Shown: positions 1,168 through 17,467 of the stretch, one piece after another | How the letters are laid out: each line of letters opens with the position of its first letter | Position numbering within the stretch: position 1 is the stretch's first letter | Source: a virus | Strand: one strand, 5' to 3' | IMG/VR virus record: IMGVR_UViG_3300037466_002724 | Coordinates: 1-64,000 of that record | Length of the DNA: 64,000 nucleotides | Notes under the pieces: model-generated | Databases searched by the model: none | Told to the model about the DNA's origin: nothing | The model's input: only the letters and a program-made list of their open reading frames with translations | Translations under genes and position numbers: made by a program

Positions 1168-1310
1168 GCGAGCGCCGCCCAAAACGCCGCGGTCCGGTTC
1201 AGTACCGCTGCGGAGGGGAATCCGCGAAGAACCCCATGTGAAGATTATTGTCCAGGTCGGTTCGACTGGAATTGATTTGGAGCAGACTGGCGCCCGGCGC
1301 CGACGAAGAT

Positions 1311-1742: not shown

Positions 1743-1834
1743 CCAGACCAGCAATCAGGTGCTCAGCGCAGTCGCGCCGCTGGGATCACACCAATTTTTC
1801 AAGCGCGGCAAATTATTGGGCGCTCATAGGGCGC
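1743..1834 (+). repeat. Bipartite site E1: core CCAGA-N7-TCAGG (1743-1759) + GGGCGC-N5-GGGCGC (1818-1834)
   Basis: Read directly; 58 nt between core and tandem repeat; orientation opposite to the other six copies. Confidence 0.8.
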
Positions 1835-1848
1835 AGAAAGTATAAAAA

Positions 1849-2178
1849 ATGGATCATTTCACCACCAAGAGCAGCGGCCATCTCACCGGCATGATGCAGG
1901 CCAGCGCCATGCCGGCCGCGCAACCTGAAATCAGCGAATTCGAGCGCGAGAGCCAGTCCGTCGAGGCACAGCTCGGGTACCTCGAAGAGCGCATCCAGGT
2001 GCTCAATCGTCGTCTGCAGCCTGTGATCGCGCGAGAAGTGACCGGCGACGCTGGCACCGACAGGGCTTGTCCATCGCCGTCGTCAGAAGTTGGTTCCCAG
2101 CTGCGCGGCTACAGCAACCGCATTGAGTCCGCCGCCGAAACCGTGAACTACCTGCTGAACCAGCTGGTGCTGCCGTAA
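1849..2178 (+). CDS. Hypothetical coiled-coil protein
   Basis: 109-aa ORF followed by an intrinsic terminator. Confidence 0.65.
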   Translation: MDHFTTKSSGHLTGMMQASAMPAAQPEISEFERESQSVEAQLGYLEERIQVLNRRLQPVIAREVTGDAGTDRACPSPSSEVGSQLRGYSNRIESAAETVNYLLNQLVLP

Positions 2179-2202
2179 CCAGGGCCCGTCCATCTCCACC
2201 AA

Positions 2203-2232
2203 GCCGCGCCCGGCAACCGGCGCGGCTTTTTT
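2203..2232 (+). terminator. Rho-independent terminator
   Basis: GCCGCGCC...GGCGCGGC stem followed by TTTTTT. Confidence 0.8.
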
Positions 2233-2239
2233 GTGCCCA

Positions 2240-2320
2240 GTATCAGCGAGTATCAATGAGTCTCACCAGTCTCAATGGTCGTGAGGGTATTTTGAGACCT
2301 GTATTGAGACTGCGCGAGAC
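2240..2320. repeat. Clustered GTMTCA/TGAGAC hexamers upstream of terS (candidate packaging-initiation site)
   Basis: GTATCA at 2240 and 2250; GTCTCA at 2260 and 2269; inverted TGAGAC at 2293 and 2305; CGAGAC at 2315. Confidence 0.55.
2278..2293 (+). promoter_or_regulatory. Late-promoter-like motif GTCGTGA-N4-A-N3-T upstream of terS
   Basis: GTCGTGAgggtAtttT matches the motif found 19 times in the window. Confidence 0.65.
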
Positions 2321-2323
2321 CGC

Positions 2324-2974
2324 ATGCCCCGCCCAAAGGAAGAACAACGAGACGAGATCATCGCCGCCATCCGCCAGCACCTGCTGCTGGTCGGCCCGCG
2401 CGACTACGACCAGCTGATGGCCAAGTACCCTGGCGTCAGCCGGCCGACGTTCTTCCGTTACCTGAAGAAGGCCCGGGAGCTCGAGGAGGCTGCCGCCGCG
2501 GCGCAGAGCCCGGGCGCGCTCAAGATGGCGCAGCAGCGGATCCGCGCCAACGTCGAGCCGGCCGAGAAGGTGCAGGCGAAGATCAAAGCGCACCTGCCGG
2601 CCGCGCCGTCGCCGGCCGTGGTGGCGGCTGACCCGGCCAACTCGGCGCGTGCGTTCCAGTTCTTCGCCTTCTTTAACTCGATCGTCACCGATGCCGAGCT
2701 GCTGCGCGGCACTGCCGTGACCCGCAACGACGACGGCACCGAGAAGGTCCGAAACCCGGCCATGCTCGAGAAGAGCATGCGCGGGCGCCTGGCGATCCTG
2801 GACACGTACCTGCACAGCGTCGAGACCGTCTACAACATGGAGCGCATCCGCGAGCTGTACGACCTGGTGATCGAGGAGGTCGGCAAGGCCTCGCCGGACA
2901 TCCAGATGGCGGTGCTGGCGCGCCTGCGTGAGCTCGACAATAAGCGCGGCTTGACGATGAACGGATCGGTCTGA
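2324..2974 (+). CDS. terS: Terminase small subunit (putative)
   Basis: Directly upstream of and coupled to terL; N-terminal HTH-like segment (YPGVSRPTFFRYLKK); helical, 216 aa. Confidence 0.7.
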   Translation: MPRPKEEQRDEIIAAIRQHLLLVGPRDYDQLMAKYPGVSRPTFFRYLKKARELEEAAAAAQSPGALKMAQQRIRANVEPAEKVQAKIKAHLPAAPSPAVVAADPANSARAFQFFAFFNSIVTDAELLRGTAVTRNDDGTEKVRNPAMLEKSMRGRLAILDTYLHSVETVYNMERIRELYDLVIEEVGKASPDIQMAVLARLRELDNKRGLTMNGSV

Positions 2975-5073
2975 TGGCGTTCGGCCGCAAGAAGCCTGCC
3001 GGCAAGCAGCCGGACCCGTTCGGCTCGATCGGCGAGCTGGTCGCCCGGCTGGAGGCGCGCACCGGGTTCCGCGTCGACACCAGCGAGATCGGCGACAAGT
3101 CGTTCATCGAGTGGTGCGAGTACCTGGCGACGAAGGGCCTCAAGGTGGACGGCAAGCCGTTCCGCTTGGACGACCGGCCGGCGCTGCGCCCGATCTACGA
3201 GGCCATCCCCAGCACCCGCGAGGAGGCCAAGGACGCGATGCTGATCGCCATGAAGGCGACCCAGCTGGGCCTGACCGTCTGGGAGGTCCTGGCCAACATC
3301 TACATGGCCACGAAGTGGGAGCCGGTGTCGATCGGCATGTTCATGCCGTCGATGACGACCGCCATCCACAAGTCCGAGCACCGCTTCATGCGCATGGTCC
3401 GCTCGGCGCCCGACCTGTACAAGCTGCTGGTCAACGGGCGCGACGCCGAGGGCAACGCCCAGAAGGTGGGCGAGGGCAACGTCCTGACCCGTAAGGTCGG
3501 CGAGTCGCTGCTGCTATTCCTCTGGACCACCGGCAAGGTGACCACCGAATCGGTGCCGATGGACGTCGTCACGCTGGACGAGGTGCAGGAGATGGCGCTG
3601 GACCACATCGACAAGGTCCGGGCCCGTATGGGCGACTCGGAGGTCGCCTTCACGCTGATGCTGTCCACAGCCAACATGCCGGACCTGGACATCCATTTCT
3701 GGTATCTCGAGGGCACGCAAGAGGTCTGGCACACCGAGTGCCCGCACTGCAAGGCCATGTCGGACCTGTCGGACCCGGCCGGCGTCTTCCCGGACAAGTC
3801 GATCGGCTACAACACCGGCCAGCACGCCGGCGCGCCGATGAACGAGTACGTCTGGACCTGCCCGAGCTGCAAGGGATGGATCGAGGATCCGCAGATCGGC
3901 CGCTACATTGTCACCAACCCGGGCGCGAACCCGAAGCACCGCAGTTTCCTGCTGCCGCGCACAATCAGCCCGAAGATGACCCCGCGGAAGATGATCGAGG
4001 CCTGGCGCCGGGCGAAGACCGGCAACCAGAAGAAGAGCTTCTACAACCGGACCCTGGCGCGGCCGTACATCGACGCCGACCAGCTGCCGGTGACCATGGC
4101 ACATTGTATTGCCGCCATGCAGGCCGGCATCGCCGCCGGCATCCAGTGGGAGACGAAGCACGACCGCGTCAGCAGCTATTTCATGGGCATCGACCAGATG
4201 GGCAGCTTCAACGCCGTCATCGTCAAGAAGCGCCTGCCCAACGGGCAGCAGGCCGTCGTGCACGTGGAGGCTGTATTCGACAATGACCCGTTCGAGCGCT
4301 GCAGCGAGCTCATGGGCATCTTCAAGGTCTCCGTCTGCGTGGTCGAGCAGCTGCCGAACGTGAACGACGCGCGCCGGTTCGCGAACCGCCACCCGGGCCG
4401 CGTGTTCCTGGCCGGCTACGCGGACCTGCGCGACGACCAGATGGTCTGGGGCGACGACCTATCGAAGTCGGACCGGCGCACCAGCGAAGAGGACCGATCG
4501 CGCTACACTGTCACGCTGAACCAGTACAAGTGCATGCAGACATCGCTGTACCGCATCCGCGACGGTCACTGCATTTTCCCGAACGCCGACGACCTGGTGC
4601 AGGAGGTGGTCGAGAACGGCGAGCGCAAGCGGATCCCGCTGCTGCGCGACTGGGTTTTCGTCCACTACACGAAGACGGCGCTGGTGGTCGACGACGGCTC
4701 GGAGACCGTGAGCGGCAAGCCGAAAAAGGACATCGAGGCGCGCAAGCTGCGCATGAAGGTGCTCAAGGTCGGCATCGACCCGCACTACAGTTACGCGAAC
4801 ATGCTGTGCGACGTCGCCTGGGCGCGATCGCACGGCACGACATCCTTCATCCTGCCCGACACCGCCGCTACAGGAGCGCCCGTGATCCAACCCGAAGACA
4901 TCGGCGCCGCGCCGGTCATCAACGCCGTGCACGAGCTGCGCCAGGAGCTGACCGGCGACCGCTGCGGCGGCTGCGCGAACTACGACGAGACCGACAACAT
5001 GTGCATGGAACGCTGGTTCAAGGTGCGGGCTGAGGACCTGGGCTGCCCGATGTTCATCCGGGCCGAGTCGTGA
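2974..5073 (+). CDS. terL: Terminase large subunit, lambda GpA-like family
   Basis: Walker A-like KATQLGLT, Walker B VTLDEVQEM, CPHC/CPSC zinc finger, nuclease motif MGIDQMG; 699 aa. Confidence 0.88.
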   Translation: MAFGRKKPAGKQPDPFGSIGELVARLEARTGFRVDTSEIGDKSFIEWCEYLATKGLKVDGKPFRLDDRPALRPIYEAIPSTREEAKDAMLIAMKATQLGLTVWEVLANIYMATKWEPVSIGMFMPSMTTAIHKSEHRFMRMVRSAPDLYKLLVNGRDAEGNAQKVGEGNVLTRKVGESLLLFLWTTGKVTTESVPMDVVTLDEVQEMALDHIDKVRARMGDSEVAFTLMLSTANMPDLDIHFWYLEGTQEVWHTECPHCKAMSDLSDPAGVFPDKSIGYNTGQHAGAPMNEYVWTCPSCKGWIEDPQIGRYIVTNPGANPKHRSFLLPRTISPKMTPRKMIEAWRRAKTGNQKKSFYNRTLARPYIDADQLPVTMAHCIAAMQAGIAAGIQWETKHDRVSSYFMGIDQMGSFNAVIVKKRLPNGQQAVVHVEAVFDNDPFERCSELMGIFKVSVCVVEQLPNVNDARRFANRHPGRVFLAGYADLRDDQMVWGDDLSKSDRRTSEEDRSRYTVTLNQYKCMQTSLYRIRDGHCIFPNADDLVQEVVENGERKRIPLLRDWVFVHYTKTALVVDDGSETVSGKPKKDIEARKLRMKVLKVGIDPHYSYANMLCDVAWARSHGTTSFILPDTAATGAPVIQPEDIGAAPVINAVHELRQELTGDRCGGCANYDETDNMCMERWFKVRAEDLGCPMFIRAES

Positions 5074-5082
5074 TGCCAGACT
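5067..5082 (+). promoter_or_regulatory. Late-promoter-like motif overlapping the terL stop codon
   Basis: GTCGTGAtgccAgacT. Confidence 0.55.
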
Positions 5083-5167
5083 GAGGGCTCTTTGGCAGGG
5101 ACCTATTGACCCGATCAACCAGCCTGGAGGCGAGATGATGAAGAGCGAAGGCATCGGCGGCGCTTAA

Positions 5168-5266
5168 GCGCCCGAACAGCGCCCGGCATGCGCCAGCAGT
5201 CGGGCGTTTTCCTTTCTGGGCAGGGACTTGCGCGCGCAGATGCCCAGATGGGCTATCAGGGTGTCA
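5168..5266 (-). repeat. Bipartite site E2
   Basis: GCGCCC-gaaca-GCGCCC at 5168-5184; core CCAGA-tgggcta-TCAGGgtgTCA at 5244-5266; 59 nt gap. Confidence 0.8.
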
Positions 5267-5564
5267 GGCCTCCAAACTCGCGCTCAAGATCAGCATCAGA
5301 GATACCCATCTGGTCGCAATATCCTTTGCAGTAGCGCTTCCCATTCCACCCACAAGGGAATGCAGTTTTAACCCGCTCTGAATGTGGCCATTGCTGGATG
5401 TCTAGCGATTCAGAGTCTGGTTCAAAATGTGCTGAGGGGCAGTTCCGGCAAGCAACCTTATGGCGGCGCGGCTCTGCGGGTTGATCGTCATAGATTGGTG
5501 CAAGGATCTTTATTTGTTTGGACTTCATAGAGATCGGCTTCAGCATCCAGCGTTGACTCAGCAT
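5256..5564 (-). CDS. Cys-rich hypothetical protein, lower GC
   Basis: CRNCP...FPCGW...YCKGYC pattern; start and stop codons both fall inside repeat cores. Confidence 0.55.
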   Translation of the reverse strand: MLSQRWMLKPISMKSKQIKILAPIYDDQPAEPRRHKVACRNCPSAHFEPDSESLDIQQWPHSERVKTAFPCGWNGKRYCKGYCDQMGISDADLEREFGGLTP

Positions 5565-5571
5565 CTGGGTG

Positions 5572-5988
5572 TCACAGCGTCTTGTAATTCGTCATCCAGT
5601 TCTCGAACTGCTGCTTCGCGTGGACGGTCTGAAAGTACGCCATCTCGCCCTCGATCCAGCCGCCGAGCTCAGCAACCTTCTTGCGGAACACGTCGAACGG
5701 GATACCGGGCTGATCGCTCTCGGCGGCCTGCGCCCGGCTGATTGCTTCGCGGATTGCGGCCGTCAGCTTTGACGCCACGCCTTGCGGAACCACGCGGAGG
5801 CTCGGATAGGCCTCGACGAAGATGAGCTCTGAATTCGGGTACGTGCTGACGTAATACGACTTCGCGGGTTTAGAGCCGACCGCCGGGAAGTCAACAATCC
5901 AACGGGTCTTGCAGTTGGCGACATAGTCGATGCGTGCCGACGGAATCGGGCCAGCTAATACTTTTTCCAGCGAGGCAGTGGCATTCAT
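5572..5988 (-). CDS. Hypothetical protein
   Basis: GGAG RBS and an upstream extended -10 (TGATACACT on the minus strand, ~6020-6028); stop TGA is part of TGACACCCAGA. Confidence 0.65.
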   Translation of the reverse strand: MNATASLEKVLAGPIPSARIDYVANCKTRWIVDFPAVGSKPAKSYYVSTYPNSELIFVEAYPSLRVVPQGVASKLTAAIREAISRAQAAESDQPGIPFDVFRKKVAELGGWIEGEMAYFQTVHAKQQFENWMTNYKTL

Positions 5989-6055
5989 AAACCCTCCAGT
6001 AGAATTGATCTGATGTACACAGTGTATCAGAAATGATTAAGCTGGTGTGTTGTTT

Positions 6056-6949
6056 TTACGCTGCGAACAGGTCTGCTTGCGCTACCGCTGCACTTGCTTT
6101 CGCCTCAGCCTCATCGCGCGCCTTGATGGCGGCCGCCAGGCGATCGTTGGCCACGTGGATATAGTCCGGATTGAGCTCGGTTCCGACGTACTGCCGACCG
6201 TGCTGGATCGCGACGGCGCCCGTAGTGCCGCTTCCGTTGAATGGGTCGAGCACGGTGTCTCCTGGCCGGCTGCCGGCGAGAATGCACGGCTCGACCAGGT
6301 CGGGAGGGAACACGGCGAAGTGCGCGCCTTTGAACGGCCTGGTGTTGATGTTCCAGACGCTGCGCCTGTTGCGCGTGTCGCTGCCAGTAAAAACGCTGCC
6401 GTCGCTGTGCATCGTGGTGGCGCCGGTGTGCTTGTTGCCGCCGATGCGGTCGGCGCGCACGCGTCCAGCCTGAACGGCCGGCTCCTGGAACGCTTCGCTG
6501 TTGAACAGATACTTCTGCTTCTTCGCCAGCAGGAACAGATACTCGTGGGACGTCGTGCACCGGTCCGTCACCGGTTGTGGCATGGCGTTCGGCTTGTTCC
6601 AGACGATGTCCTGACGCAGCACCCAGCCGTCGTCCTGGAGAGCGATCGCCAGGCGTGCCGGCACCATCAGCAGCTGCTTGCCCTTGCCGTAGCTGTCGCC
6701 GATGTTGATCCAGAGTGTCCCGTCGTCCGCGAGCACCCGGCGCACCTCCCTGAACACGTCGACCAGCTTCGATACGAATTCCGCCGGCGACTGCTCAAGC
6801 CCGATCTGTCCATCGTGGCCGTAGTCGCGCAAGCCAAAATACGGCGGAGAGGTGACACACATCTGCGCCGACTTATCCTGCAGCTCCTTCATCCTGGTAA
6901 TGCAATCGCCGATGAGCACCTGCGCGCCCGGCAAAATGAGATCGTTCAT
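6056..6949 (-). CDS. DNA methyltransferase, N4-cytosine/N6-adenine beta class
   Basis: Catalytic TSPPY, WINIGDSY, HFAVFP and SAM-binding VLDPFNGSGTTG motifs. Confidence 0.92.
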   Translation of the reverse strand: MNDLILPGAQVLIGDCITRMKELQDKSAQMCVTSPPYFGLRDYGHDGQIGLEQSPAEFVSKLVDVFREVRRVLADDGTLWINIGDSYGKGKQLLMVPARLAIALQDDGWVLRQDIVWNKPNAMPQPVTDRCTTSHEYLFLLAKKQKYLFNSEAFQEPAVQAGRVRADRIGGNKHTGATTMHSDGSVFTGSDTRNRRSVWNINTRPFKGAHFAVFPPDLVEPCILAGSRPGDTVLDPFNGSGTTGAVAIQHGRQYVGTELNPDYIHVANDRLAAAIKARDEAEAKASAAVAQADLFAA

Positions 6950-7083
6950 AAGGTAGTGCCAGGTTGTTTCCCGGCTGTTGAGGTTGATGTCACGTATTAT
7001 AATTGATTAACAGCAAGCTGTGTAAAGGAATGATCTTGCGGGATGTGGCGTGTTGCTTTCGCGCCATGCGGCTGCGCGCGCCT

Positions 7084-7173
7084 GCGCCCTATCGGCGCCC
7101 GAACACCATCGCGTTCTGGCGAGCTCATAGGAGAAACCGCGCCAGCTCCACCAGATTCAGCATCTGGGTGTCA
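7084..7173 (-). repeat. Bipartite site E3
   Basis: GCGCCC-tatcg-GCGCCC at 7084-7100; core CCAGA-ttcagca-TCTGGgtgTCA at 7151-7173; 50 nt gap. Confidence 0.75.
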
Positions 7174-7923
7174 GGCGGCCTTCGCTGGCATGGCGAGCTC
7201 GTAAGCTGCCGCGATCCTAGCCTCCGCCGTCGCGAAGTGTGCAGGATCATCCTCCATGCCGATGAACTGGCGGCCAGTGCGCGCGCATGCGGCGCCGGTT
7301 GTGCCGCTGCCCATGGTGAAGTCCAGCACCACCTGGCCGGGATTCGTGTAGGTCAGCACCAGGTATTCCATCAGCGCCAACGGCTTCTGGGTCGGGTGCA
7401 GCTTGCTGCGCTGCTTGTCGCTTGAGAAGAACTGGACGCTGCGCGGGTAGCGGCTGGTCGAGTCGTACACCGTCAGCTGCTTTCCTTCACCGTAGCACTC
7501 GCTGCCGACCGTCTTGCGCTTCGTGGTCTTGCGGGCGTGGCCGTGCGTCATCTGCGGGTTGTACGTCGGCGAGCCAGCGCAGAACACGAGCACCGACTCG
7601 TGCGCGCGGAGAGGCGCCCGCTTCGCATTCAGGAAGCCGCTGGCGTTCCCCTTCTCCCATACCCAGTCGTGCCGGAACCATCGTGGATTGCTCATCACCA
7701 GGGCGCTGGTGAATGGCTGGCTGGCGGTGAACACGATGGCGCCGCCCGGCTTCACGATGCGGCGCAACTGCTCCCACATCTGTTCGAGGTCGATCACGGA
7801 ATCCCATGCGTTGCGAGTTGTGCCGTAGGGTGGGTCGGCAATTACCGCGTCGACGCTGGCGGCCGGCATGGTGCGCATCACATCGAGGCAGTCGCCAAGA
7901 TGCAGGGTATAGGGTCTCGTCAT
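7171..7923 (-). CDS. DNA methyltransferase, N6-adenine beta class
   Basis: DPPYG, HPTQKP and VLDFTMGSGTTG motifs. Likely start is the ATG at 7923 (MTRPYTLHLGDCL), 7 nt after a late-type motif. Confidence 0.92.
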   Translation of the reverse strand: MTRPYTLHLGDCLDVMRTMPAASVDAVIADPPYGTTRNAWDSVIDLEQMWEQLRRIVKPGGAIVFTASQPFTSALVMSNPRWFRHDWVWEKGNASGFLNAKRAPLRAHESVLVFCAGSPTYNPQMTHGHARKTTKRKTVGSECYGEGKQLTVYDSTSRYPRSVQFFSSDKQRSKLHPTQKPLALMEYLVLTYTNPGQVVLDFTMGSGTTGAACARTGRQFIGMEDDPAHFATAEARIAAAYELAMPAKAA

Positions 7924-7986
7924 AGAAAGTAGTGGAACGTCACGCCCGGCGCGCGGCCGGAGAAAACGCGTGTAATTCAGTGAACT

Positions 7987-8084
7987 GCGCCCGATCGGCG
8001 CCCCAATTCGCATTGTGATGCGTCAAGGCATTGTATCAGAAAAGATAAATCCAATGGGCAACCTGACTTTAAGTCTGGGCCTCA
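7987..8084 (-). repeat. Bipartite site E4
   Basis: GCGCCC-gatcg-GCGCCC at 7987-8003; core CCTGA-ctttaag-TCTGGgccTCA at 8062-8084; 58 nt gap. Confidence 0.8.
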
Positions 8085-8162
8085 ACATTACGTAATGTCG
8101 CCGCCAGGCGACGGCGCAGGGTCGTGACCGAACAGTGAAGGCTCCACAACCAAGGAGCCGAC

Positions 8163-8891
8163 ATGCGCCGCTACCACTGGAGGCCGGACCTCCCCGATCA
8201 CCGCGACTTTCTATATTCCCTGCACCAGCCGGCCGCGACCGCGCTGCCGCAGCAGGTTGACCTGCGCGCGCACTGCCCGCCGGTCGTCGACCAGGGCCAG
8301 CTCGGCAGCTGCACCGCGAACGCGCTGGCCGGCGCCATGGGCTTCATCCATCCCGGCGCGCCGGCGTTCTCGCGCCTGTTCGTCTACTACAACGAGCGCG
8401 CGATCGAGGGCACGATCGGCCAGGACGCGGGCGCCATGATCCGCGACGGCGTCAAGTCGCTGGCCAACCAGGGTGTCTGCCCGGAGACCGACTGCCCGTA
8501 CAACATCGCCCGCTTCACCCGCAAGCCGACCAAGAAGGCCTACAGCGACGCGCTCAAGACGAAGGCCACGTCCTACCTGCGCCTGGTCACGCTCGACGAC
8601 ATGCTGCAGTGCCTGGCGGCCGGCTTCCCGTTCGTGTTCGGCTTCACGGTCTACGATGCGTTCGAGTCCGAGGCCGTGGCCAAGACCGGCGTGCTGAACA
8701 TGCCGGGCAAGGGCGAAAAGGTCCTCGGCGGGCACGCGGTGATGGCGGTCGGTTACGACATGGCGGCGCGCCGGCTGATCGTGCGCAACAGCTGGGGCGC
8801 CGACTGGGGTCAGGCGGGCTACTTCACCATGCCGTTCGACTACATCACGCACCGCGGCCTGTCCGACGACTTCTGGACGCTGCGCGCCTGA
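8163..8891 (+). CDS. Papain-like cysteine protease (peptidase C1)
   Basis: VDLR...VVDQGQLGSCTANA (catalytic Cys), GGHAVMAVGY (His), IVRNSWGADWG (Asn). AAGGAG RBS; late motif at 8121-8136. Confidence 0.92.
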   Translation: MRRYHWRPDLPDHRDFLYSLHQPAATALPQQVDLRAHCPPVVDQGQLGSCTANALAGAMGFIHPGAPAFSRLFVYYNERAIEGTIGQDAGAMIRDGVKSLANQGVCPETDCPYNIARFTRKPTKKAYSDALKTKATSYLRLVTLDDMLQCLAAGFPFVFGFTVYDAFESEAVAKTGVLNMPGKGEKVLGGHAVMAVGYDMAARRLIVRNSWGADWGQAGYFTMPFDYITHRGLSDDFWTLRA

Positions 8892-8935
8892 TCCCAGGTA
8901 AGGCCATGGCGCCGTCGTGAACCGATACTGGCGCC

Positions 8936-9949
8936 ATGGCCATCCTCTTCCTGAAAGCCCGCGACCGGGGCGACACCGATACCGGCGACATGTTCGGCAC
9001 GCACGTGGAGCAGCGCACGCGCAAGGACGGCGTGACGCAGGGTTACCGCGTGAAGGCGAAGGACCTGCCGCCGAACCGATTCAAGGGCATGGACCCGGTC
9101 AAGGCGACGCCGGATATGTTTGCCGGGCCGCCGCAGTCGCCGGCTCCAACGCCTGCGCCTGCGGCCGAGCCCGCTATCCCTGACGGCCACAGCAAGAAGT
9201 TCTACGTGACCATGATCCGCGACCCAGGCCCGCGTCAGCGCGTGGCGCGCCTGGCCGGCCCGTTCGACGAGCACGAGCACGCGCTGGCGCACGTCGAGCC
9301 GGCGCGCAAGCTGGCCGTGGAGGTCGACCCGCGCGCGCATTTCGATGCGTTCGGCACGGCTGGCGTCACCGCGGCCGAGCACCGGCCTGGTGTGCTGAAT
9401 GAGCGGCTGGGGATTGGCGCGCCTGCCGCCGACCCTGATGCCGCGCTGCTCGACGGCTTCCCGCAAGGTTCCCACTTCATCGCCGGCAAGGGCATACTCG
9501 GATCCGGCAAGTGGGCCGTGGCTGGCCCGGACGGGCGCATGATCGGCAACCTGATGGCCACCAAGCGCGACGCGGCCCAGGAGGCGCGCGGTTTCCTGCG
9601 CTCGCGCGAGCTGGCTGCCGCCGCGGCAAAGGAACTCGAGGAGCACTACGCGCACATCGCCGACAAGCTGCGCGCCGGCAAGGACCTTACCGACGTCGAC
9701 CTCAAGGCGCTGGGCCTGAAACCTGGCCGGGCGCGGTTCGACTACCTCTCGCCGGTCGTCCAGCGCCTGTTCGGCATAAGCCGCGCCAAGGTGCGCGCCG
9801 CGATGGGGGACGCGCTGTCGCAATCGTTCAGCGACATGGGCACGCCGAGCTGGTGGGCGAACCCGCGCAAGGCGCTGGCCAATGCGGCAGCGTACGCTAG
9901 CGGTGCCACGCCGGCTCTCACCAAAGCGCTGTTCCTCCGCCGCCCATGA
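8936..9949 (+). CDS. Putative head-associated/internal protein
   Basis: Begins MAILFLKA and ends LTKALFLRRP. HVEQRTRKDGVTQGYR resembles the N-terminus of the 2501-aa protein. Leaderless late motif at 8914-8929. Confidence 0.6.
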   Translation: MAILFLKARDRGDTDTGDMFGTHVEQRTRKDGVTQGYRVKAKDLPPNRFKGMDPVKATPDMFAGPPQSPAPTPAPAAEPAIPDGHSKKFYVTMIRDPGPRQRVARLAGPFDEHEHALAHVEPARKLAVEVDPRAHFDAFGTAGVTAAEHRPGVLNERLGIGAPAADPDAALLDGFPQGSHFIAGKGILGSGKWAVAGPDGRMIGNLMATKRDAAQEARGFLRSRELAAAAAKELEEHYAHIADKLRAGKDLTDVDLKALGLKPGRARFDYLSPVVQRLFGISRAKVRAAMGDALSQSFSDMGTPSWWANPRKALANAAAYASGATPALTKALFLRRP

Positions 9950-9985
9950 GCCCGATCGCCTGGTGGTTCCTCTGGCTGGGCCTGT

Positions 9986-10933
9986 TCACGACGCCGCGTA
10001 CAGAGAGACAACGACAAGACACTTCGCTGCCAGCATCCACTTTGCCAGAACGGACAGCAGCAGAGCCGTAAACCCGCTGCGCAGGGTTTCCCGATAACGC
10101 GCTGGCGTCATGCCGGTGACGTCCTTGAAGCACGTGCTGAAATGCGACTGGCTGGCGAAGCCGCAGTTCAGTGCGATCTGGACCAACGATAGGGTGGAAT
10201 CCGCCAGCCTAACCTTGGCCACATCCACCCGGCGCGCCATCATATAACGCATCGGCGTCTCACCGGTCGCAGCCTTGAACGCCCGTGAGAATTGCGACTG
10301 GCTCAGGTTGACCAAGTCAGCGAGCTCGGAGGCGCGCACGGCACGACCGAGGTGACGATTGATGTAGGCGTCAATCTCGCCGACCTGTTGCTCGGTGAGT
10401 TGGGCCTTGCGGGTCGGATACTGCTCCACCTTGGCGCAAAGGATCCGCAACACCCGCGTGACGATCGAGTTGATCAGCGCATCGACCAGCGGCGGCAGCG
10501 TCTTTGGAGGCGATTCTAACGCCACCTCCTTCAGCAGCGAGATCGCGTAGCCCAGGACCGAACAGTCGCCGCAATCGAAATAGTTGTAGAGGCAATCCTT
10601 GAATCCCGGCGTGAGTTCTGCAGCGCGATCGAACCAGTGTTGTGGGATCGCGACGATAGTGATGTCCATTGGGTATTCAGACCGGCCCGCTAACTGCGTA
10701 TTGCTCGGAAGAAAATAGACTGTGTAGGCTGTATGGATTACGTTCTTGAGTGGCGCGCCTTCGATCCCGACGGAACCGGTCAGTCCATGTTGGACGACAC
10801 CGACGGCGTTCATGTTGAAATACAGTTCGACATCGCCGCGTGCGCCCTGGAACACATCAACTTTTACGTCCCGGATCATCCGCGTGGTGTGCTGGTCACA
10901 ATCCCAAAATCTGAGCCGTCCCTCGTCTGGCAT
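9986..10933 (-). CDS. AraC-family transcriptional regulator
   Basis: C-terminal double HTH: ELADLVNLSQSQFSRAFK...IALNCGFASQSHFSTCFKDVTGMTPARYR. Confidence 0.92.
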   Translation of the reverse strand: MPDEGRLRFWDCDQHTTRMIRDVKVDVFQGARGDVELYFNMNAVGVVQHGLTGSVGIEGAPLKNVIHTAYTVYFLPSNTQLAGRSEYPMDITIVAIPQHWFDRAAELTPGFKDCLYNYFDCGDCSVLGYAISLLKEVALESPPKTLPPLVDALINSIVTRVLRILCAKVEQYPTRKAQLTEQQVGEIDAYINRHLGRAVRASELADLVNLSQSQFSRAFKAATGETPMRYMMARRVDVAKVRLADSTLSLVQIALNCGFASQSHFSTCFKDVTGMTPARYRETLRSGFTALLLSVLAKWMLAAKCLVVVSLYAAS

Positions 10934-10989
10934 GACCTGCCTCGTAGCGGCAACATACCAGTGCTTTATGGGCTATGCGAGCGGAATCC

Positions 10990-11088
10990 GCGCCCTATGA
11001 GCGCCCGGATTGTGGAATGCGGGAAAAAAATGCCTTTATTCACAGGAGGTTCAGGTAGATATTACCCTGATTCCGTATCTGGGCGTCA
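10990..11088 (-). repeat. Bipartite site E5
   Basis: GCGCCC-tatga-GCGCCC at 10990-11006; core CCTGA-ttccgta-TCTGGgcgTCA at 11066-11088; 59 nt gap. Confidence 0.82.
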
Positions 11089-12941
11089 GGATCGGCGCGC
11101 CGGGACGTGTCCGGCCAGCACCAGCATGCGGCGCTCGCCGAGGGCGCGTTCGGTGGCGGCTACGATCTCCGCGCGGTCGACCCTGGTTCCGGCGAAGTGG
11201 CGCAGGGCATTGAACAGCCGTCGGCGCATCCGCCGCATCCGGAACTTGCCGCGGGTCGTGTAGCCAGCCAGGCGCCGGAGCTGGCGCGCGCTGGGCGCCT
11301 TTCTCCGAAAGTCGACAGTGATCTCGATGGCGTCTGTCACGATGCCCCGCCGGCACGCCGATCGAACGCGAAGTGCGCCAGGATCCCCAGCAGCAGCAGG
11401 ATGACGGCGTCCTGACTGTAGTCCGGCGACACGAAGGCCTGCGCCCGGTTCGCGAAAAACACGGCGTAGGCCAGGAGCCCGGCGCCGAAAAACACCCGCG
11501 TGATGATCTTGTCCATGATCGGTCCTACCGTCTCGTTTTTGGGTATTGATAATCTACGTCATGTTTCTCGTTGTGCTGCTTTAGCTTTGTCAAGTGCCAG
11601 CCGCGGCAAAGTCTGCACTCATACATATAAAGCTTAACGCTGGTCTCGGATTGGAGGCATTGGCCGGCCGCCCGGGCGCCGAACTCGTCCGAGTACCGGC
11701 GCTTGCCCTCGCAGCCGCGCAGGATCTTTGAGACCAGCATTCCGGAGCGGCGCAGGGGCTGGGTCATCGCGGCGACTTCGTGTGCAGGACGACGACGGGC
11801 CCTGTCAGCTGGTTACTGTAGGTCGCGGCCAGGTCGGCGCCGACGACGACGTCGCCGATCGCGTCGCGCACCGGGTGGTGCCCTGGTAGACGCTGCAGCA
11901 CCTCGATCAGCTCGGTGACAGTCACGGCATGGCCCTCCCGATCTCGACGGCGGCGCGGAAGATGGCGAGACGCAAAGAGGCTGCCGGATCATCGCCGACC
12001 GGCGCGCTTGCCTTGCCGTACCGGTCCATCACTGAATCGCCCACGCGCCAGAAGCCAGCCTCGATCCACACATCCTCCTGCAGGTGTGCCGCCAGCTCTA
12101 GCGCCTGCCCGCTGTCGCGCCGCGGATCCCAGAGCATGTCGCGCGCGATCTCGTGGCCCTGGTCGCGCAGCCAATCGTAGTCCCAGTCGGCGCGCGCTTT
12201 GCCGGCGGCCTTGGCGGCGAGGGCGAGCTGGTCGCGGTCATCCTGCATGCTGCGCCTCCTTCCACTCCAGAAACGGCCGGCGCACCAGCTCGTGAAACCG
12301 CTCGGCCGCGCCGGCATTCGTGTCGAGCTCGTTGCGGCTGTAGATGCCGCAGGAGGCCAAAACGAACTCCTTGGCGCATTCCTCGTCGAACTCGCCGGCG
12401 GTGCCCGACTGGGCGGCCAGGTGCTCGATCCAGGCCTGGAACTGCCGGTCGCGGCAGAAGACGCAGGCCATGATGCAAAGGTCGCGAGTGCTCACGGCTT
12501 CACCGCCTTGGCTGGAGACAGGCAGCTCACCAGCCGGAAAATGTCGGCATCGAGCTCGCTGTCGAAACCCATGGCCTCGGCCAAGTCGAAATGCCAGTGC
12601 GGAACGCCGGCGCGTTTTCCCCACTTCGGGATGCGCTGCAGGTAGGTTATTCCACTTTTGCTGTGTGTCGTCTCGCGCGCGAGAACCCACATGCGGCGAC
12701 CACGCCAGACAAACTGGTCGGGATAGTTGTTCAGCCCGTGGCTATCCAGACCGTCAGGCCAGCGCCACCGGCCGTCCTCGTAGATCGCAAGGTCTTTCCC
12801 GAACCGACCACCTGGCGCGCTTTGCACCTCGTAGGCACCATCCCGCACCGGTGGTGTCGTGCACGGGATCCAGTCGGTGACCTGCGGCTGTTCGTCGAGC
12901 AGGCGCTCCATAGTCCGCTTCGTCGGTCCGCGGCGGCTCAC
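11086..12941 (-). CDS. Run of small coupled hypothetical genes (approx. 11086-11340, 11337-11517, 11525-11767, 11922-12248, 12238-12495, 12492-12941)
   Basis: Consecutive minus-strand ORFs, several with overlapping stop/start codons. 11525-11767 has a C-x-GK...YECRLCRGWHLT zinc motif. Confidence 0.55.
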
Positions 12942-13909
12942 GGCTGCACCTTGGCGATGATGGCGGCGAGGTCGATGTTCCGGAACTCGAAACCAAAGCA
13001 GACCTTTTCGACGACGGCCCTGTGCACCGCATCGGCGATCGCCATGTCGCGCGCGGCGCGTTCCCCGATGCGTGCAAGCTGGCGCCATTCGCCCTGGAGG
13101 AAGCGATAACCAAGTTCCTCCAGCAGTCGCTCAGCCTTGCCCAGCGCCTCGCTCTTGCGCGCCAGGTCGGCGCGCAGCTGGTCGACTTCCGGCTCGGTGA
13201 CCATCAGCTCATTGATCACATCAACCAAGTAGTCGCGCGCCTGGCCACCGAAGGCTAAACCATGGCGCTTCTCAACCACCGCGAAGGCCTCGTCGATGTG
13301 CTCGCGGCTCATTTTCCCGCCCGGCAGCATCAGGTAGCCGTTATCCACCGCGTGGCGCAGGGCGGCGTTGGCGACGGCAAGCACCGCACTGTGACGACCG
13401 CCATCCGGACCGCTCTTGTTGAGCGTCGCGCCGTGCAACCGGACGAGCTCAACTGCATCCATCCCCGTCACCGGATACTGCTTCTCCGGCGCCGGCCAGC
13501 GGCAGTCGTCAAAGCCGCCGTACCAGTTCGGGGTGACTTCCGACACCGTGTACTCCTGGCCGACAACAGATTTGCATTTCGCCTCGCGCTCGCTGTAGAC
13601 CTTGTCTCCAACAAACACCGGCTTGCCGTCGATGTAGCCGAGCGGGGTCATGACGAGGTCGAACTTGCCGTCGCCGTGGCCCTGGGTGCCGTCGGCGCGA
13701 TAGGTGCGCACGGCCGCGTCCTGCTTCGACACGGTCACCAGGCACTGCGCATGCTTGCGGTCCCACTTGACGATCTCGACGCCTTCACCGGTGGCGAGGG
13801 CATACGGCGCGCCGGCCTTGGCGTGCTCCAAATTGAACGGCCGCGTGAAGAGCTTGGCGGCTTCCTGCTTAAGTAAGGCTGCACCGATGTCGGTGACGGT
13901 GATATTCAT
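12938..13909 (-). CDS. Phage hypothetical protein
   Basis: Strong GGGAGG RBS; 323-aa ORF, first gene after site E6. Confidence 0.7.
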   Translation of the reverse strand: MNITVTDIGAALLKQEAAKLFTRPFNLEHAKAGAPYALATGEGVEIVKWDRKHAQCLVTVSKQDAAVRTYRADGTQGHGDGKFDLVMTPLGYIDGKPVFVGDKVYSEREAKCKSVVGQEYTVSEVTPNWYGGFDDCRWPAPEKQYPVTGMDAVELVRLHGATLNKSGPDGGRHSAVLAVANAALRHAVDNGYLMLPGGKMSREHIDEAFAVVEKRHGLAFGGQARDYLVDVINELMVTEPEVDQLRADLARKSEALGKAERLLEELGYRFLQGEWRQLARIGERAARDMAIADAVHRAVVEKVCFGFEFRNIDLAAIIAKVQP

Positions 13910-13925
13910 AAACCTCCCTGTTTGC

Positions 13926-14024
13926 GCGCCCTATCAGCGCCCGAAGTTAATCGAAATTGATGTAAGTAACTGTACCACAAATGATTAAGTCTGTGCGGAA
14001 ACCAGATTGATTGTCAGGTATTCA
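13926..14024 (-). repeat. Bipartite site E6, with an internal sigma70-like extended -10
   Basis: GCGCCC-tatca-GCGCCC at 13926-13942; core CCAGA-ttgattg-TCAGGtatTCA at 14002-14024; 59 nt gap containing TGGTACAGT on the minus strand. Confidence 0.82.
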
Positions 14025-14135
14025 CAACACGTCAGAAGGATGATCCCAACTGCCAGCAGAACCATGCGTAGGCTAGGCCGACGGCGGCGCCAGCGCACGC
14101 GTAGAGAATGCCGCTGATGATCTTCAAGAGGATAC

Positions 14136-14642
14136 TCATGCTGCCATCCTCGGGGCGCGCTCGCCAACGAGCCACAGCCAGCGGTCGTCCACCTGGTCCG
14201 CCTTGCGCCAAGGCCGGTTGATATCGAGCTCGGCCTTACGGTGAGGGCCGCCCGGCCCGGTCTTCTTGCATCCGCAGCTGGCCGTGTTGCCGTACCTGAC
14301 ATCCTTCAGGCGGACGTTGGTCACGGTGCCGCAGTCGCATTTGAATTCCCACACCGCGCCCTGACTGCCTACCTCTATGAGCCGGACAGCGGTCAGAATG
14401 CCGTAGCGGCCGCCGGTGACATCGAGGTGAGGACGCGCGCGGCCCATGCAGCCGCATGAGCTCACCCTACCAGTGCTGAGAAGCGTCGCACGGGTCACGT
14501 GTTCTTTTCCGCAGTCGCAGATGCACCGCCACCAGCTGCCGCGCCGCCCGCCTTCGGGACGAGGTACGCGCTCGACCGCGACCAGCTTGCCGAACCGCTG
14601 GTTGGCCAGGTCCTTCGGCTTTGTAGAGCGGCGGTCAGCCAT
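14136..14642 (-). CDS. Protein with two CxCDCG...SCGC repeats (N-terminal module of AP2/HNH-type phage proteins)
   Basis: DLANQRFGKLVAV..WRCICDCG...SSCGC occurs twice. Confidence 0.7.
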   Translation of the reverse strand: MADRRSTKPKDLANQRFGKLVAVERVPRPEGGRRGSWWRCICDCGKEHVTRATLLSTGRVSSCGCMGRARPHLDVTGGRYGILTAVRLIEVGSQGAVWEFKCDCGTVTNVRLKDVRYGNTASCGCKKTGPGGPHRKAELDINRPWRKADQVDDRWLWLVGERAPRMAA

Positions 14643-14985
14643 GATCCACCTCGTCCGGCACGGTGTCGCCAAACTTGCTGGCGACGTAGGCGCGCATGGC
14701 GGCGATCAGCGGCGTGGGGCCGCTATAGTCGCCGGCCTCGTGGCAAGCCAGCCATTTGTTGCGCACTGGGGCAATCTGAATGCGCGCGAGCTCGATAATT
14801 GGCCCACCCTCGACCCAGTCGAGTGAAGGCGAATAGATACGCGGGATCCCTTTCTGATAGGCGGTGTCGATGAAGATGTATGCGTGTTGCTTTGCGCAGC
14901 GACTTCGAATTTCGACGCGCAATCCTTCCACCCGCGCGATCCAGTAATCCAGCAGCGCTCCCTCCAGTTCAGCGACTTTCGGCAT
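14635..14985 (-). CDS. DUF2591/NinX-like phage protein
   Basis: LEGALLDYWIA...YSPSLDWVEGGPII...GPTPLIAAMRAYVASKFG. Confidence 0.75.
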   Translation of the reverse strand: MPKVAELEGALLDYWIARVEGLRVEIRSRCAKQHAYIFIDTAYQKGIPRIYSPSLDWVEGGPIIELARIQIAPVRNKWLACHEAGDYSGPTPLIAAMRAYVASKFGDTVPDEVDHG

Positions 14986-15772
14986 CGCCGTTCTCCTTGT
15001 CATTCAGGTCCAGCGACGCCGGCAAGTTGTCGGGCAGGGCCTTGGGCTGGCGGCGCTCCAGCACCTTCTGCGCCCACTCCTGGCCTGATGGTCCTGTGTA
15101 GCCGCGCTCCTTCGCGAGGTTCAGCAGACCGGCCGCTTCGGCTGAATCGGACGCAGGATCTGGCATGGGTTTCCCAAATGGGACGACCCACTTTCCAGTT
15201 GGCGGTTCCGCGTGCTTCTCGACTGGCAGCGGCAGCACGTCGTCGAGCGGGTCGTTGGGGTCGGCACCCTGGGCGGCGGCACGGTTGTATGTCTCATCGG
15301 TGACGTAAGACAGCGTGCCGAACCCATCCAGACTGTAGCCGATCAGCTGGGCCAGCTGCTCCCAGTCTTCTTGCGGAAAGTCCATACAGGCTAGGTCGTT
15401 CAGCTTGCCTTCCGCCAGGTGGTCGACGATGGCATTGCGCTTGAAGCGCAGCCTGCCATGCGCATCCGTGACCAGAGGTTGGATTGGGTGCCTGGCCTCC
15501 ATACTGCCAGCATTGGTAGTAGCCTCCGCCCGCTCCAGCCGCGCGATCAGCTCCAGCACGACGGCGGGGTTGGCGGCGGCGATGTAGGCGGCGTCGATGG
15601 CGCACTCATCCGCGCTGCGCCCAAACCCGGTAGTTTCGCCGACGATCGTTTCGCCGTCAGCGCCGCCCGTGATCGTAGTCGGCGCGTGGCACGTCCAGTT
15701 GCCCGCACCCCACGGCCCCGCCGTCGCCGCCTGCGCCAGCTCCTTGAGGCGGGTGAGGTCGAGGGCGGTCAT
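14969..15772 (-). CDS. Ead/Ea22-like protein
   Basis: LKELAQAATAGPW...DAAYIAAANPAVVLELIARLE. Confidence 0.75.
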   Translation of the reverse strand: MTALDLTRLKELAQAATAGPWGAGNWTCHAPTTITGGADGETIVGETTGFGRSADECAIDAAYIAAANPAVVLELIARLERAEATTNAGSMEARHPIQPLVTDAHGRLRFKRNAIVDHLAEGKLNDLACMDFPQEDWEQLAQLIGYSLDGFGTLSYVTDETYNRAAAQGADPNDPLDDVLPLPVEKHAEPPTGKWVVPFGKPMPDPASDSAEAAGLLNLAKERGYTGPSGQEWAQKVLERRQPKALPDNLPASLDLNDKENGDAESR

Positions 15773-16992
15773 GCGCGACCTCCGCTGGTCAGCTTGAAGA
15801 TGATGATGAAGAGCGCGACACCGATCGCTATGACGGCGAGCAGAGACAGTCGCACCTCTTTCTTTGACCGCGAGCCGTCACAACCGCGCAGGTAGCCGTA
15901 CCAGCCGATCAGGACGAGCAGCATCAGGAACTGCCAGATGATGGGGCCGGCGTTCACTCTGCCTCCCGCGCGGCGAGCATGGCGTCGGCAATCGCATAGG
16001 CGGCCTCTGCAAGGGCCTTTTTGAATTCGTTTGCGTCTCCATTCGACTTCGAAAACTGCTGCACGGTGCTGGCGTAGACTTGCGGCAGCACCTCGGCGGC
16101 AATTTCGTCCCGCTGGCGCTGGCTGATCATGTCGTCGAGCCAGGCAGCACCGCTATTCGGGACGCGCAGCTCGATGGCGGCGTATTCGCGCTTCGTAAGC
16201 CCTTTCTCGGACATGAAGCTGTTATTGATCGGGAAAGCTCCCTGATCTTCGTCGTTGTCGCTCATACCTTCCTTTCATCGCGCCCAGCTCGCGCCGGGCG
16301 CATCGGGGTTGATCAGATTGCCGGCACCAGACCCTTGCGGTCGGCTTTCTTGAGGGCGCGGTAGATGGCGCGGCCGCAGGTGGCGGACAGGCGGTGCTGG
16401 CCGAGGAAGATGGCGCCCGGCGCGCCAGGGAACGGCGGGATGAATACCTGCTTGCCCAGTTGGACAACGACCTCACGCGGGTGCTTGCCGATCTGGCGGA
16501 CGGCGCGGCGGGCGATCTTGGCTTGGATGTGGGACATGTGATTTTCCTAGTTGTGGTGGCTGGTGGTTATGCGGGCACGTCGGCCAGGTCGAACACGATG
16601 CCGCGGCAGTACGGCTCGCCGTCCTCGACGATCTCGAACGTCTCGTGCGGGATAGTGGTCCTGATGATCCAGCTGTAGCCAGCCTCGCCAGCCCAGACCG
16701 CATCGATGGTGACGCCGCCGTTCTCGCGCTTGAAGTAGTCGCGAAGGGCGTCCTGGTCGTCGCGGTCGATGCTGTCGAAGCTCGGGACAACGCCGGCGCG
16801 GTCGATGCGCGCGCTACCGCCGCCGTAGCAGCCGACCTCGTCGTGGATCGCACCGCGCAGCTCGAGCAGGTCGTCGCTGGCGCCGAAGGCCACGATCAGG
16901 CCTGCAGCTTTCGCCTGAGCGGCTTCGTCACGGGTGATCTCACTGCGGTATTCGCGGCCGGTCAGCAGCGCCGCCAGGTCATTGGCGTTCAC
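15769..16992 (-). CDS. Four small phage hypothetical genes (15769-15957 membrane, 15954-16265, 16313-16537, 16567-16992)
   Basis: Consecutive minus-strand ORFs with RBSs, some with overlapping stop/start codons. Confidence 0.6.
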
Positions 16993-17246
16993 GCCGGCAC
17001 CTTGCTGGTGACGTAGTCGATCGCCTGCTGGACGGTCTGGAGCTTTTCGCCGTCGTCGTTCGGGATATCGATGTCGAACTCGTCTTCGAGCGCGAACACG
17101 ATTTCGACCAGGTCCAGGGAGTCGGCGCCGAGGTCATCGACCAGGTTGCTTTCCGGCTTGACGTCCGCCTCGGCGAAACCGAGCTCATGAGCGATGACGC
17201 GCTTCACGCGGTCGACGGTGGTTGCGGCTTGAATATTGGTGTCCAC
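16989..17246 (-). CDS. acpP: Acyl carrier protein
   Basis: [25 protein letters not shown] with the phosphopantetheinylation Ser intact; acidic, 85 aa; GTG start with AAGGA RBS. Confidence 0.93.
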
Positions 17247-17260
17247 GTTTTCCTTCTGTT

Positions 17261-17359
17261 GCGCCCTATACGCGCCCGGGCTGTCTGGCGTGCCTGCAAA
17301 GTGCCGGCGATTGTTGGTGTTCCGTCGCCTTGACGCCCAGACCTCAAATCAGGTCGTCT
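17261..17359 (-). repeat. Bipartite site E7
   Basis: GCGCCC-tatac-GCGCCC at 17261-17277; core TGAcgcCCAGA-cctcaaa-TCAGG at 17331-17353; 59 nt gap to CCAGA at 17337. Confidence 0.82.
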
Positions 17360-17467
17360 GTCCGGCAACGATGTATCAATAATAATCAACAGACGAAAAT
17401 TAAGCAACGACTTGTTGCTTTCCTGCACGCCGCCACCGCCCCGGCGTCGTGACGCTACGCTGCTCCT

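Follow-up and report, generated by a model that had tools for sequence, protein, structure and literature searches.

Why should a temperate phage carry, at the borders of its gene blocks, a series of paired repeats that look like attachment sites? The question is raised by IMG/VR virus record IMGVR_UViG_3300037466_002724, the 91,008-bp sequence of a 91-kb temperate phage, which ends in direct terminal repeats and of which bases 1-64,000 form the window considered here. A sequence-only reading of the window had described an inverted-repeat core, CCWGA-N7-TCWGG (W being A or T), paired at seven places with a tandem repeat, GGGCGC-N5-GGGCGC, and had taken the pairs for att-like sites of an integron-like cassette system. 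We find that the cores have the half-sites of the true crossover site of the phage's own integrase, and that the repeats are shared with its attP. The integrase probably docks at these gene-block borders inside the phage, and it may recombine there.

Paired core and arm-repeat sites

The window contains exactly seven CCWGA-N7-TCWGG cores, against 0.24 expected, and none of 100 shuffles of its sequence reaches seven. Seven GGGCGC-N5-GGGCGC pairs are present where 0.20 are expected. All fourteen elements lie where the sequence-only reading had placed them, and the core-to-arm gaps (58, 59, 50, 58, 59, 59 and 59 nt), the orientation of the sites (six minus, one plus at 1743/1818) and the stop codons in or abutting the cores are also as it described. 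The absence of paired sites from the structural genes holds as well, as the two other matches to the relaxed core CWGA-N7-TCWG (25611 and 58280) lack the repeat. In the whole genome there are ten cores and twelve repeat pairs, comprising further core/arm pairs at 66955/67000 (gap 28), 84993/85067 and 88058/88133, and repeats without a core at 67113 and 67387. At every genomic site the repeat is directed at the downstream gene.

For comparison we used related phages (G001, G002 and G005-G014) and the cultured Bordetella phage vB_BbrM_PHB04 (PHB04), whose terL is 82% identical to that of the present phage. Site A (1743..1834), on the plus strand, consists of the core CCAGA-ccagcaa-TCAGG (1743-1759), a 58-nt gap and the arm pair GGGCGCTCATAGGGCGC (1818-1834). 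The ATG of the open reading frame (ORF) 1849-2178 follows 14 nt past the arms, and the site, which is the last of its gene array, has orthologs in PHB04 (55886) and G001 (61509).

The remaining window sites are on the minus strand. Site B (5168..5260) has the core CCTGA-tagccca-TCTGG (5260 to 5244), a 59-nt gap and arms at 5184 to 5168; as the last site of the minus-strand array it looks toward the 3' end of terL, and no credible gene of the same direction lies downstream of it. Equivalent terminal sites are found in PHB04 (52020) and G001 (64863). Site C (7084..7167) combines the core CCAGA-tgctgaa-TCTGG (7167 to 7151) and arms at 7100 to 7084 with a gap of 50 nt, one helical turn shorter. 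Site D (7987..8078; core CCAGA-cttaaag-TCAGG, 8078 to 8062; 58-nt gap; arms 8003 to 7987) lies upstream of the methylase gene 7171-8013, and Site E (10990..11082; core CCAGA-tacggaa-TCAGG; 59-nt gap; arms 11006 to 10990) upstream of the AraC-family gene 9986-10933. Site F (13926..14018) has the core CCTGA-caatcaa-TCTGG, a 59-nt gap and arms at 13942 to 13926, and 16 nt past the arms are the Shine-Dalgarno sequence and ATG of ORF 12938-13909. Site G (17261..17353; core CCTGA-tttgagg-TCTGG; 59-nt gap; arms 17277 to 17261) opens the minus-strand array beside the divergent portal gene, with the GTG of the acyl-carrier-like ORF 16989-17246 14 nt on; its spacer is identical in G001 (74014). Finally, a degenerate site at 5553..5569, also on the minus strand, has only a core, CCAGA-tgctgag-TCAAC, and no arms; the ATG of ORF 5256-5564 is within this core.

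Scanning IMG/VR for the pattern gave 110 stretches, most of them on contigs of 85-97 kb; they contain 141 distinct sites, and complete genomes raise the total to 147. Judging from this set, the site module is shared by a large family of temperate phages, with genomes of ~90 kb, found in soil and rhizosphere metagenomes. The conserved core reads (C/A)CWGA-Y-N4-A-R-TCWG(G/T), and the gap is followed by two T[C/A]GGGCGC units with an 11-bp period and then by A. PHB04 has six modules, with relaxed CWGA-N7-TCWG cores at 39430, 44559, 48378, 52020, 55886 and 60739. Gap lengths over the 141 sites fall into classes about one helical turn apart (57-59 nt, n = 104; 46-49 nt, n = 20; 35-39 nt, n = 10). 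Both half-sites stay at consensus across deep divergence. The gap had been called non-conserved; this is true of its interior, but the gap is not featureless, as it has A tracts at -44/-43 and T tracts at -24 to -22, two turns apart. Helical phasing of the gap together with phased A/T tracts is what a protein bridging core and arms over bent DNA would require.

Only 79 of the 147 sites (54%) have complementary bases at the W positions of the core. The core is therefore a degenerate protein site on DNA rather than an RNA stem, and the RNA hairpin reading was rejected; an Rfam scan of positions 1-18000 gave no matches. Intrinsic terminators were likewise rejected as a part of the module, since a hairpin with a T run occurs in 31 of 148 gaps in the forward direction (~21%), in 33 in reverse and in 17 after shuffling; none of the phage's own sites has a forward one. 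No gap contains a consensus sigma-70 promoter, and no positional -10 signal is seen over 110 sites. In the phage's own gaps an extended -10-like element is found only in D (TGATACAAT, 8018-8026) and F (TGGTACAGT, 13969-13977), on the minus strand and exactly 26 nt upstream of the arms in both cases. The two elements are kept in the G001 counterparts of these gaps, and are possible host-type promoters enclosed by core and arms.

Five of the phage's own sites have an extra half-site-like CTGAC(A/G)C immediately 5' of the core (5240-5270, 7160-7180, 11075-11095 and genome positions 88045-88060). At many sites of the family, TCA is found 3 nt past the core, giving the full palindrome TGA-N3-CCWGA-N7-TCWGG-N3-TCA. 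These elements could be additional binding positions or built-in stop codons.

The integrase and its attachment sites

The sequence-only reading saw no recombinase in the window and proposed a search of the rest of the genome for a tyrosine recombinase with an arm-binding domain. Such a protein is encoded outside the window, at 65659-66945 on the minus strand. It is a P4-type tyrosine integrase of 428 amino acids with the domains PF13356 (Arm-DNA-bind_3, E 1.9e-14) and PF00589 (Phage_integrase, E 1.8e-14) and a weak match to an integrase central domain, and it is the sole protein of the genome with an arm-binding domain.

The 636-bp spacer upstream of int holds 14 GGGCGC hexamers, where about one is expected. 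The same spacer has a 3' fragment of a tRNA-Arg(ACG) gene, in which the anticodon loop, CTACGAA (67252-67258), is followed by the 3' stem, TCTGG, so that the attP core reads TAAGA-CTACGAA-TCTGG. GGGCGC-N5-GGGCGC pairs lie 117 nt from this core on one side and 123 nt on the other, along with further copies. The separate core and arms at 66955/67000 are 10-70 nt upstream of the int start. From the tRNA fragment, the anticodon arm of the target was predicted to be CCAGA-CTACGAA-TCTGG, and provirus G010, whose integrase is 67% identical, bears this out: host DNA is followed by an intact tRNA-Arg(ACG) gene and then by the phage P' arm with GGGCGC pairs. The attB anticodon arm of G010, CCAGA-CTACGAA-TCTGG, is the consensus of the dispersed cores, including the Y..AR positions and the 5-7-5 geometry. 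GTDB genomes had been searched for integrase relatives in order to obtain prophage junctions, and gave only matches of 31-32% identity, which were of no use; the junction comes from the IMG/VR provirus instead.

The att-like interpretation of the sites thus stands, with a heterobivalent integrase, an attP that has the same repeats and an attB that equals the core. Compared with what is expected of att sites of such an integrase, the dispersed modules have a cognate enzyme, the half-sites of its true crossover and arm sites shared with attP. What they lack, in the 12 complete genomes, is a partner with an identical overlap.

The attP plan with arm pairs on both sides is common to G001 and G009 (tRNA-Arg), PHB04 (tRNA-His) and G002 (tRNA-Gly(CCC)). 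In PHB04, where attP lies at ~86400-86790, the loop TTGTGAT is followed by TCTGG and the arm pairs have one mismatch; in G002 the stem is ACAGC/GCTGT and the arm pairs are partial. GGGCGC pairs are also present in the P arm of G006, G007, G013 and G014, and none were found beside int in G005, G012, G008 and G011. The four dispersed cores of G002 have the form (A/T)CWGA..TCTGT, and the A..T outer pair of the G002 target stem is matched by three of the four left and all four right half-sites, where the present phage and G001 have C..G. The outer half-site base thus appears to co-vary, in part, with the stem of the target tRNA.

An alignment of the integrases of 11 phages (A1) has ~30 invariant residues in the first ~90 positions, and all 11 agree closely over the N-terminal ~95 residues; the remainder falls into two barely alignable classes. 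This suggests a domain mosaic in which the C-terminal half, with the core-binding and catalytic domains, has been swapped among phages. Conservation of the arm-binding domain is matched by that of the GGGCGC arms; the catalytic half and the target tRNA differ between phages.

In phages of the second integrase class, an attP-like core such as CCAAA-CTCAAAA-TCTGT has a complete tRNA-Leu(CAA) gene ~90 nt past it (L142:2836-2921 in G006, L141:1181-1267 in G007, L147:2663-2748 in G013 and L148:2831-2917 in G014). The 7-nt center of this core is the anticodon loop of the phage tRNA-Leu(CAA). Integration into the anticodon loop of the host tRNA-Leu gene would split that gene, and the phage copy may therefore be its replacement. 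G008 and G011 are complete genomes with an intact integrase (67-68% identical) and five dispersed sites each. No arm-repeat cluster or tRNA fragment is found beside int in G008 (L140, L151-L155) or G011 (L144, L166-L170), where a terminator and another gene follow int directly; a tRNA-like 3' fragment, possibly of tRNA-Trp, lies just upstream of their portal gene.

Possible exchange and probable docking at gene-block borders

From these observations we infer how the integrase would act at the dispersed sites. Very probably it binds them with both of its DNA-binding parts, forming a bridged loop like that of attL. The inverted repeat, a copy of the 5-7-5 crossover site in the tRNA anticodon arm, would take two catalytic/core-binding domains, and the tandem T[C/A]GGGCGC pair would be an arm-type site for two N-terminal arm-binding domains; that is, the N-domain would sit on TAGGGCGC pairs and the C-terminal part on CWGA-N7-TCWG. 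Phased A/T tracts or a bending protein would fold the ~58-bp gap, so that an integrase dimer could bridge arm and core as in the lambda attL intasome. The further step, which we favor tentatively and with somewhat less than even confidence, is that each site is a secondary attachment-type site of the phage's own integrase and hence a predicted crossover point where modules swap or insert. Gene modules would be swapped or inserted at these fixed points mainly between related genomes (a co-infecting phage, or a phage and a prophage) or, by another route, between a site and a circular segment whose overlap matches or is tolerated. Since its 7-nt overlap is private, each site of a genome would be kept from recombining with the others.

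Homology breakpoints in the site flanks, mapped with blastn and tblastx, support exchange at the cores in part. In a comparison with G001, homology covers the methylase block 7171-8013 between core C and the right half of core D, and the DNA on either side is unrelated. The spacer TGCTGAA is located downstream of this block in the present phage and upstream of the same block in G001. Furthermore, the core-only site 5553-5569 repeats the left flank of Site C, its left half-site and six of its seven spacer bases, and the two bracket the arms of Site C, the methylase gene 6056-6949 and ORF 5572-5988, arranged as the two junctions of an insertion would be. In near-identical pairs, which record recent events, the stretch of identity begins either at the left half-site (L086/L098) or at the junction of spacer and right half-site (L072/L117).

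The spacers had also been described as non-conserved. They are private to each site; at orthologous sites, however, identity of the four central spacer bases is 0.59 against 0.44 for the adjacent gap, and is higher in 12 of 16 groups (Wilcoxon p = 0.013). Several ortholog groups combine 100% spacer identity with a gap identity of 0.30-0.65. Such site-specific conservation is hard to explain by protein contacts, and would be expected from overlap matching between partners. Identical spacers occur at equivalent sites of other genomes, and sites without flank homology share identical spacers 39 times against 7.7 expected.

Several observations weigh against exchange at the cores. A recent break is found 4 nt past the arms (L032/L100), and some breaks are at start codons, which core exchange cannot produce; breakpoints between relatives thus fall in part at core edges and in part right after the arms or at start codons. 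In averaged profiles the module is able to remain with either of its flanks. At the conserved early site the spacer varies freely although the position is kept, and tblastx reveals many of the seemingly context-free identical spacers to be deep orthologs, which weakens the excess of 39 over 7.7. No spacer is duplicated within any of the 12 complete genomes, so no partner is visible, although with ~0.4 duplicates expected this uniqueness is not significant alone; the only near-duplicate is the degenerate site 5553-5569. Class-B integrases differ strongly in the core-binding region, yet the same dispersed cores are found in their genomes, and GGGCGC arms, though dispersed in G005 and G012, are missing beside int in both. 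Finally, the units of G008-G011, with sites 1-10 kb apart, are multi-gene blocks rather than integron-like cassettes.

The integron-like capture and shuffling of the sequence-only reading is not borne out in that form. As overlaps are unique within each of the 12 genomes, exchange within a genome should be blocked for an ordinary tyrosine recombinase, and site positions are conserved across deep divergence; frequent shuffling within a genome is unlikely. In the contigs of one DNA run, from the rhizosphere metagenome that is the probable source, joints are only short-sided (20-32 nt) and none lies at a core, a result neutral on circles and deletions.

The sites are confined to two unidirectional arrays of non-late genes, as defined by GC3-based gene calls (GC content at third codon positions) and a new scan for a late-promoter-like motif. 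The plus-strand array extends from ~84131 across the genome ends to ~2228 and contains the sites at 84993, 88058 and 1743. After ORF 1849-2178 it is closed by a strong terminator-like hairpin with a T run (2201-2228, plus strand), located just 5' of a late-promoter-like motif (2278) in front of the terS-like gene and terL. The minus-strand accessory array (5168..17353) lies between terL (2974-5073) and the portal gene (17468-19234). It carries N6/N4 DNA methylases (6056-6949 and 7171-8013), the AraC-family regulator (9986-10933), and HNH-like (14136-14672), Ead/Ea22-like (14969-15772) and acyl-carrier-protein-like (16989-17246) genes. PHB04 has the same arrangement of terL, minus-strand block and portal gene, so the block is not an insert peculiar to this genome, as had been supposed.

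Two plus-strand genes, 8163-8891 (papain-like peptidase) and 8936-9949, lie inside the minus-strand array. The late-promoter-like motif, GTCGTGA-N4-A-N3-T, is found on the plus strand at 8121, 8914 and 17446 and in 13 further copies. Because it precedes both genes as it does the portal gene (17446), the two are late-class islands within the accessory array.

The order at the sites is stop codon, core, gap, arms and next start codon. Family-wide, the stop codon of the upstream ORF lies -5 to +4 nt from the core in 45 of 62 cases, and the distance from arms to next start peaks at 10-19 nt. The last site of an array is followed by no gene (Site B, PHB04 52020 and G001 64863). The early genes 84131-84658 (175 amino acids) and 84658-84966 (102 amino acids, weak zinc-ribbon match) are conserved in all 12 genomes, and the position of the site that follows them is kept in most; their products are candidate regulators. 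Even among phages whose flanking proteins are 40-50% identical this position is kept, as are one in front of the terS-side gene and one at the terL 3' end.

This layout is also what would be expected if the integrase docked at the sites and did not recombine, which we consider less probable than exchange yet well above the other alternatives. A loop of ~75 bp between stop and start codons would then be a roadblock, insulator or repression loop that ties expression of accessory and early operons to the integrase level, for example by switching off accessory and lytic transcription at lysogeny, and int would be autoregulated through the core/arm pair 66955/67000, placed immediately upstream of its start. 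In favor of docking alone, the sites are strictly co-oriented with transcription and limited to non-late arrays, other genes being marked by the late-promoter-like motif, and their positions persist despite the divergence of the flanking proteins. A frozen arm-binding domain fits a domain with many genomic targets, private overlaps would make the sites non-recombinogenic, the -10-like elements upstream of the arms in gaps D and F are retained in G001, and G008 and G011 keep int and dispersed sites with no attP-like arm cluster. There is also a precedent in KplE1 IntS, which in the cited account represses itself through att-site binding (PMC2951348). A purely architectural site, however, need not conserve site-specific spacer bases, which are conserved above the gap, and terminal sites have no gene to control. 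The gaps hold no consistent sigma-70 promoter, and strand exchange is suggested by the breaks in homology at core edges and by the repetition of the TGCTGA overlap. Docking of this kind is the form in which the looping operator of the sequence-only reading survives, with the integrase itself as the looping protein; its two-protein form ranks lower.

In that form, which we judge improbable, the sites would be a regulon of proteins other than the integrase, with a dimeric factor on the inverted repeat and a tandem-binding factor on the GGGCGC pair. The GGGCGC binder would be a Cox/Apl-like excisionase-regulator or one of the early proteins 84131-84658 and 84658-84966, and the factors would also be accessory to attP. 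P2 Cox and 186 Apl have direct repeats with a 10-11-bp period at both attP and promoters, which lends this reading some appeal, as do the position of the early gene pair directly upstream of the first site in 12 of 12 genomes, the dispersed arms of G005 and G012 with none beside int, and the unchanged cores alongside a different class-B core-binding region. An unrelated regulator would leave unexplained that the inverted repeat is the actual attB crossover site in the tRNA anticodon arm. In addition, the attP core has repeat pairs on either side, about equally far away, as integrase arm sites would be, and the arm-binding domain is co-conserved with the arms. A Pfam scan of 30 small proteins found no helix-turn-helix repressor or excisionase and no family of the CI, Cro or Xis type; many small ORFs match no family at all. 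The AraC-family protein was rejected as the repeat binder, as it is absent from G008, G011, G005 and G012, all of which have sites. That the modules are conserved linkers or a selfish miniature repeat with no protein partner, their 12-17-bp identities acting as microhomology for general or RecE-like recombination, is very improbable: breakpoints at both module ends, including right after the arms, and a RecE-like exonuclease in the family (by the PHB04 annotation) would suit it, but a variable interior between helically phased ends over 141 sites calls for a bridging protein, the half-sites hold their consensus across deep divergence and the elements are identical to those of attP and attB. 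Least credible is a sigma-54-type -24/-12 promoter (GG-N10-GC) in GGGCGC-N5-GGGCGC, with the inverted repeat as an enhancer-binding site ~90 bp upstream. The GG/GC spacing is canonical and the inverted repeat is centered near -93, but start codons with a Shine-Dalgarno sequence lie 7-16 nt past the motif, so that transcription would be predicted to start within or beyond them. The motif also consists of two identical hexamers in tandem, such pairs are found on both sides of attP, a place with nothing to be transcribed, and no activator domain (PF00158) is encoded in the genome; geometry and the missing activator led us to reject it.

We therefore rank module exchange first, transcription punctuation second and the regulon of other proteins third, with linker repeats and sigma-54 minor. 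Module exchange and integrase-dependent control of transcription are not mutually exclusive. Clean exchange of modules at gene boundaries is a long-standing question of phage mosaicism, and here the borders of the most variable regions carry predicted integrase docking sites. If the integrase recombines at them, they would be a dedicated mechanism of viral modular exchange; if it only binds, the integrase would be a genome-wide regulator; either outcome would widen the known roles of heterobivalent integrases. The question is directly testable in PHB04, a family member in culture. For the engineering of integrase specificity, the frozen arm-binding domain beside a swappable catalytic half offers a useful lead.

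A bolder version of module exchange, which we regard as doubtful, is a phage-borne, double-stranded counterpart of the integron, in which the integrase acts at about ten internal attB-like sites with the 7-nt overlap as the address. Modules would then change places only at equivalent junctions with a co-infecting or resident relative, or be taken up as circles, giving site-specific modular reassortment without scrambling of the genome. The many internal targets would freeze the arm-binding domain and leave the catalytic half and tRNA target free to swap.

Relation to known systems

In the literature searched, dispersed integrase sites are undescribed for this or any phage family. The closest likeness is to the lambda attL/attP intasome, which shares an inverted core with a 7-bp center, tandem arm repeats tens of base pairs to one side, an integrase with a separate arm-binding domain, and phased or bent intervening DNA. 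Unlike in lambda, about ten sites are scattered in the phage genome away from attP, all at gene-block borders. Their cores are attB-like and perfect, where that of attP (TAAGA/TCTGG) is less good; each site has a private spacer and a single arm pair, at 58 nt rather than at ~120 nt.

The stoperators of mycobacteriophage L5 and the start-associated sequences (SAS) and extended SAS (ESAS) of Cluster K are reportedly present in many intergenic copies, co-oriented with transcription and often just upstream of starts; in Cluster K an inverted-repeat element is said to be paired with a start-proximal one. Those motifs match repressor operators or lack a known binder and do not match att sites, whereas the elements described here are integrase core and arm sites.

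Like integrons, the phage has unidirectional arrays of variable genes split by tyrosine-recombinase sites, with stop codons in or against the sites and a terminal site that closes the array. One methylase block is bounded by cores on both sides, but breaks also occur after the arms and blocks reach 4-9 kb. The enzyme is a P4-type integrase beside a tRNA-type attP, ~50 kb from the array, and not IntI beside attI and the promoter Pc. The sites are double-stranded core and arm modules rather than folded single-strand attC hairpins, and their two ends differ (inverted versus direct repeat), unlike the imperfect palindrome of attC. The units are often multi-gene, and no recombination point shared within a genome is visible.

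Acinetobacter plasmids, as portrayed in the cited reports, carry pdif (XerC/D) modules, discrete sets of genes bounded by tyrosine-recombinase sites and reshuffled among related replicons (PMC13141974, PMC9947245). The gene modules of the phage are bounded in a similar way. In those accounts the recombinase is the host XerCD and the 11-6-11 dif-like sites alternate in orientation, while here the recombinase is the phage's own, arm sites are present and each array has a single orientation. KplE1 IntS, also a P4-type integrase, offers a precedent for att binding sites that are used to control transcription (PMC2951348). There, as far as the cited account goes, only the int promoter within attL is controlled, whereas the phage family described here has a genome-wide set of sites.

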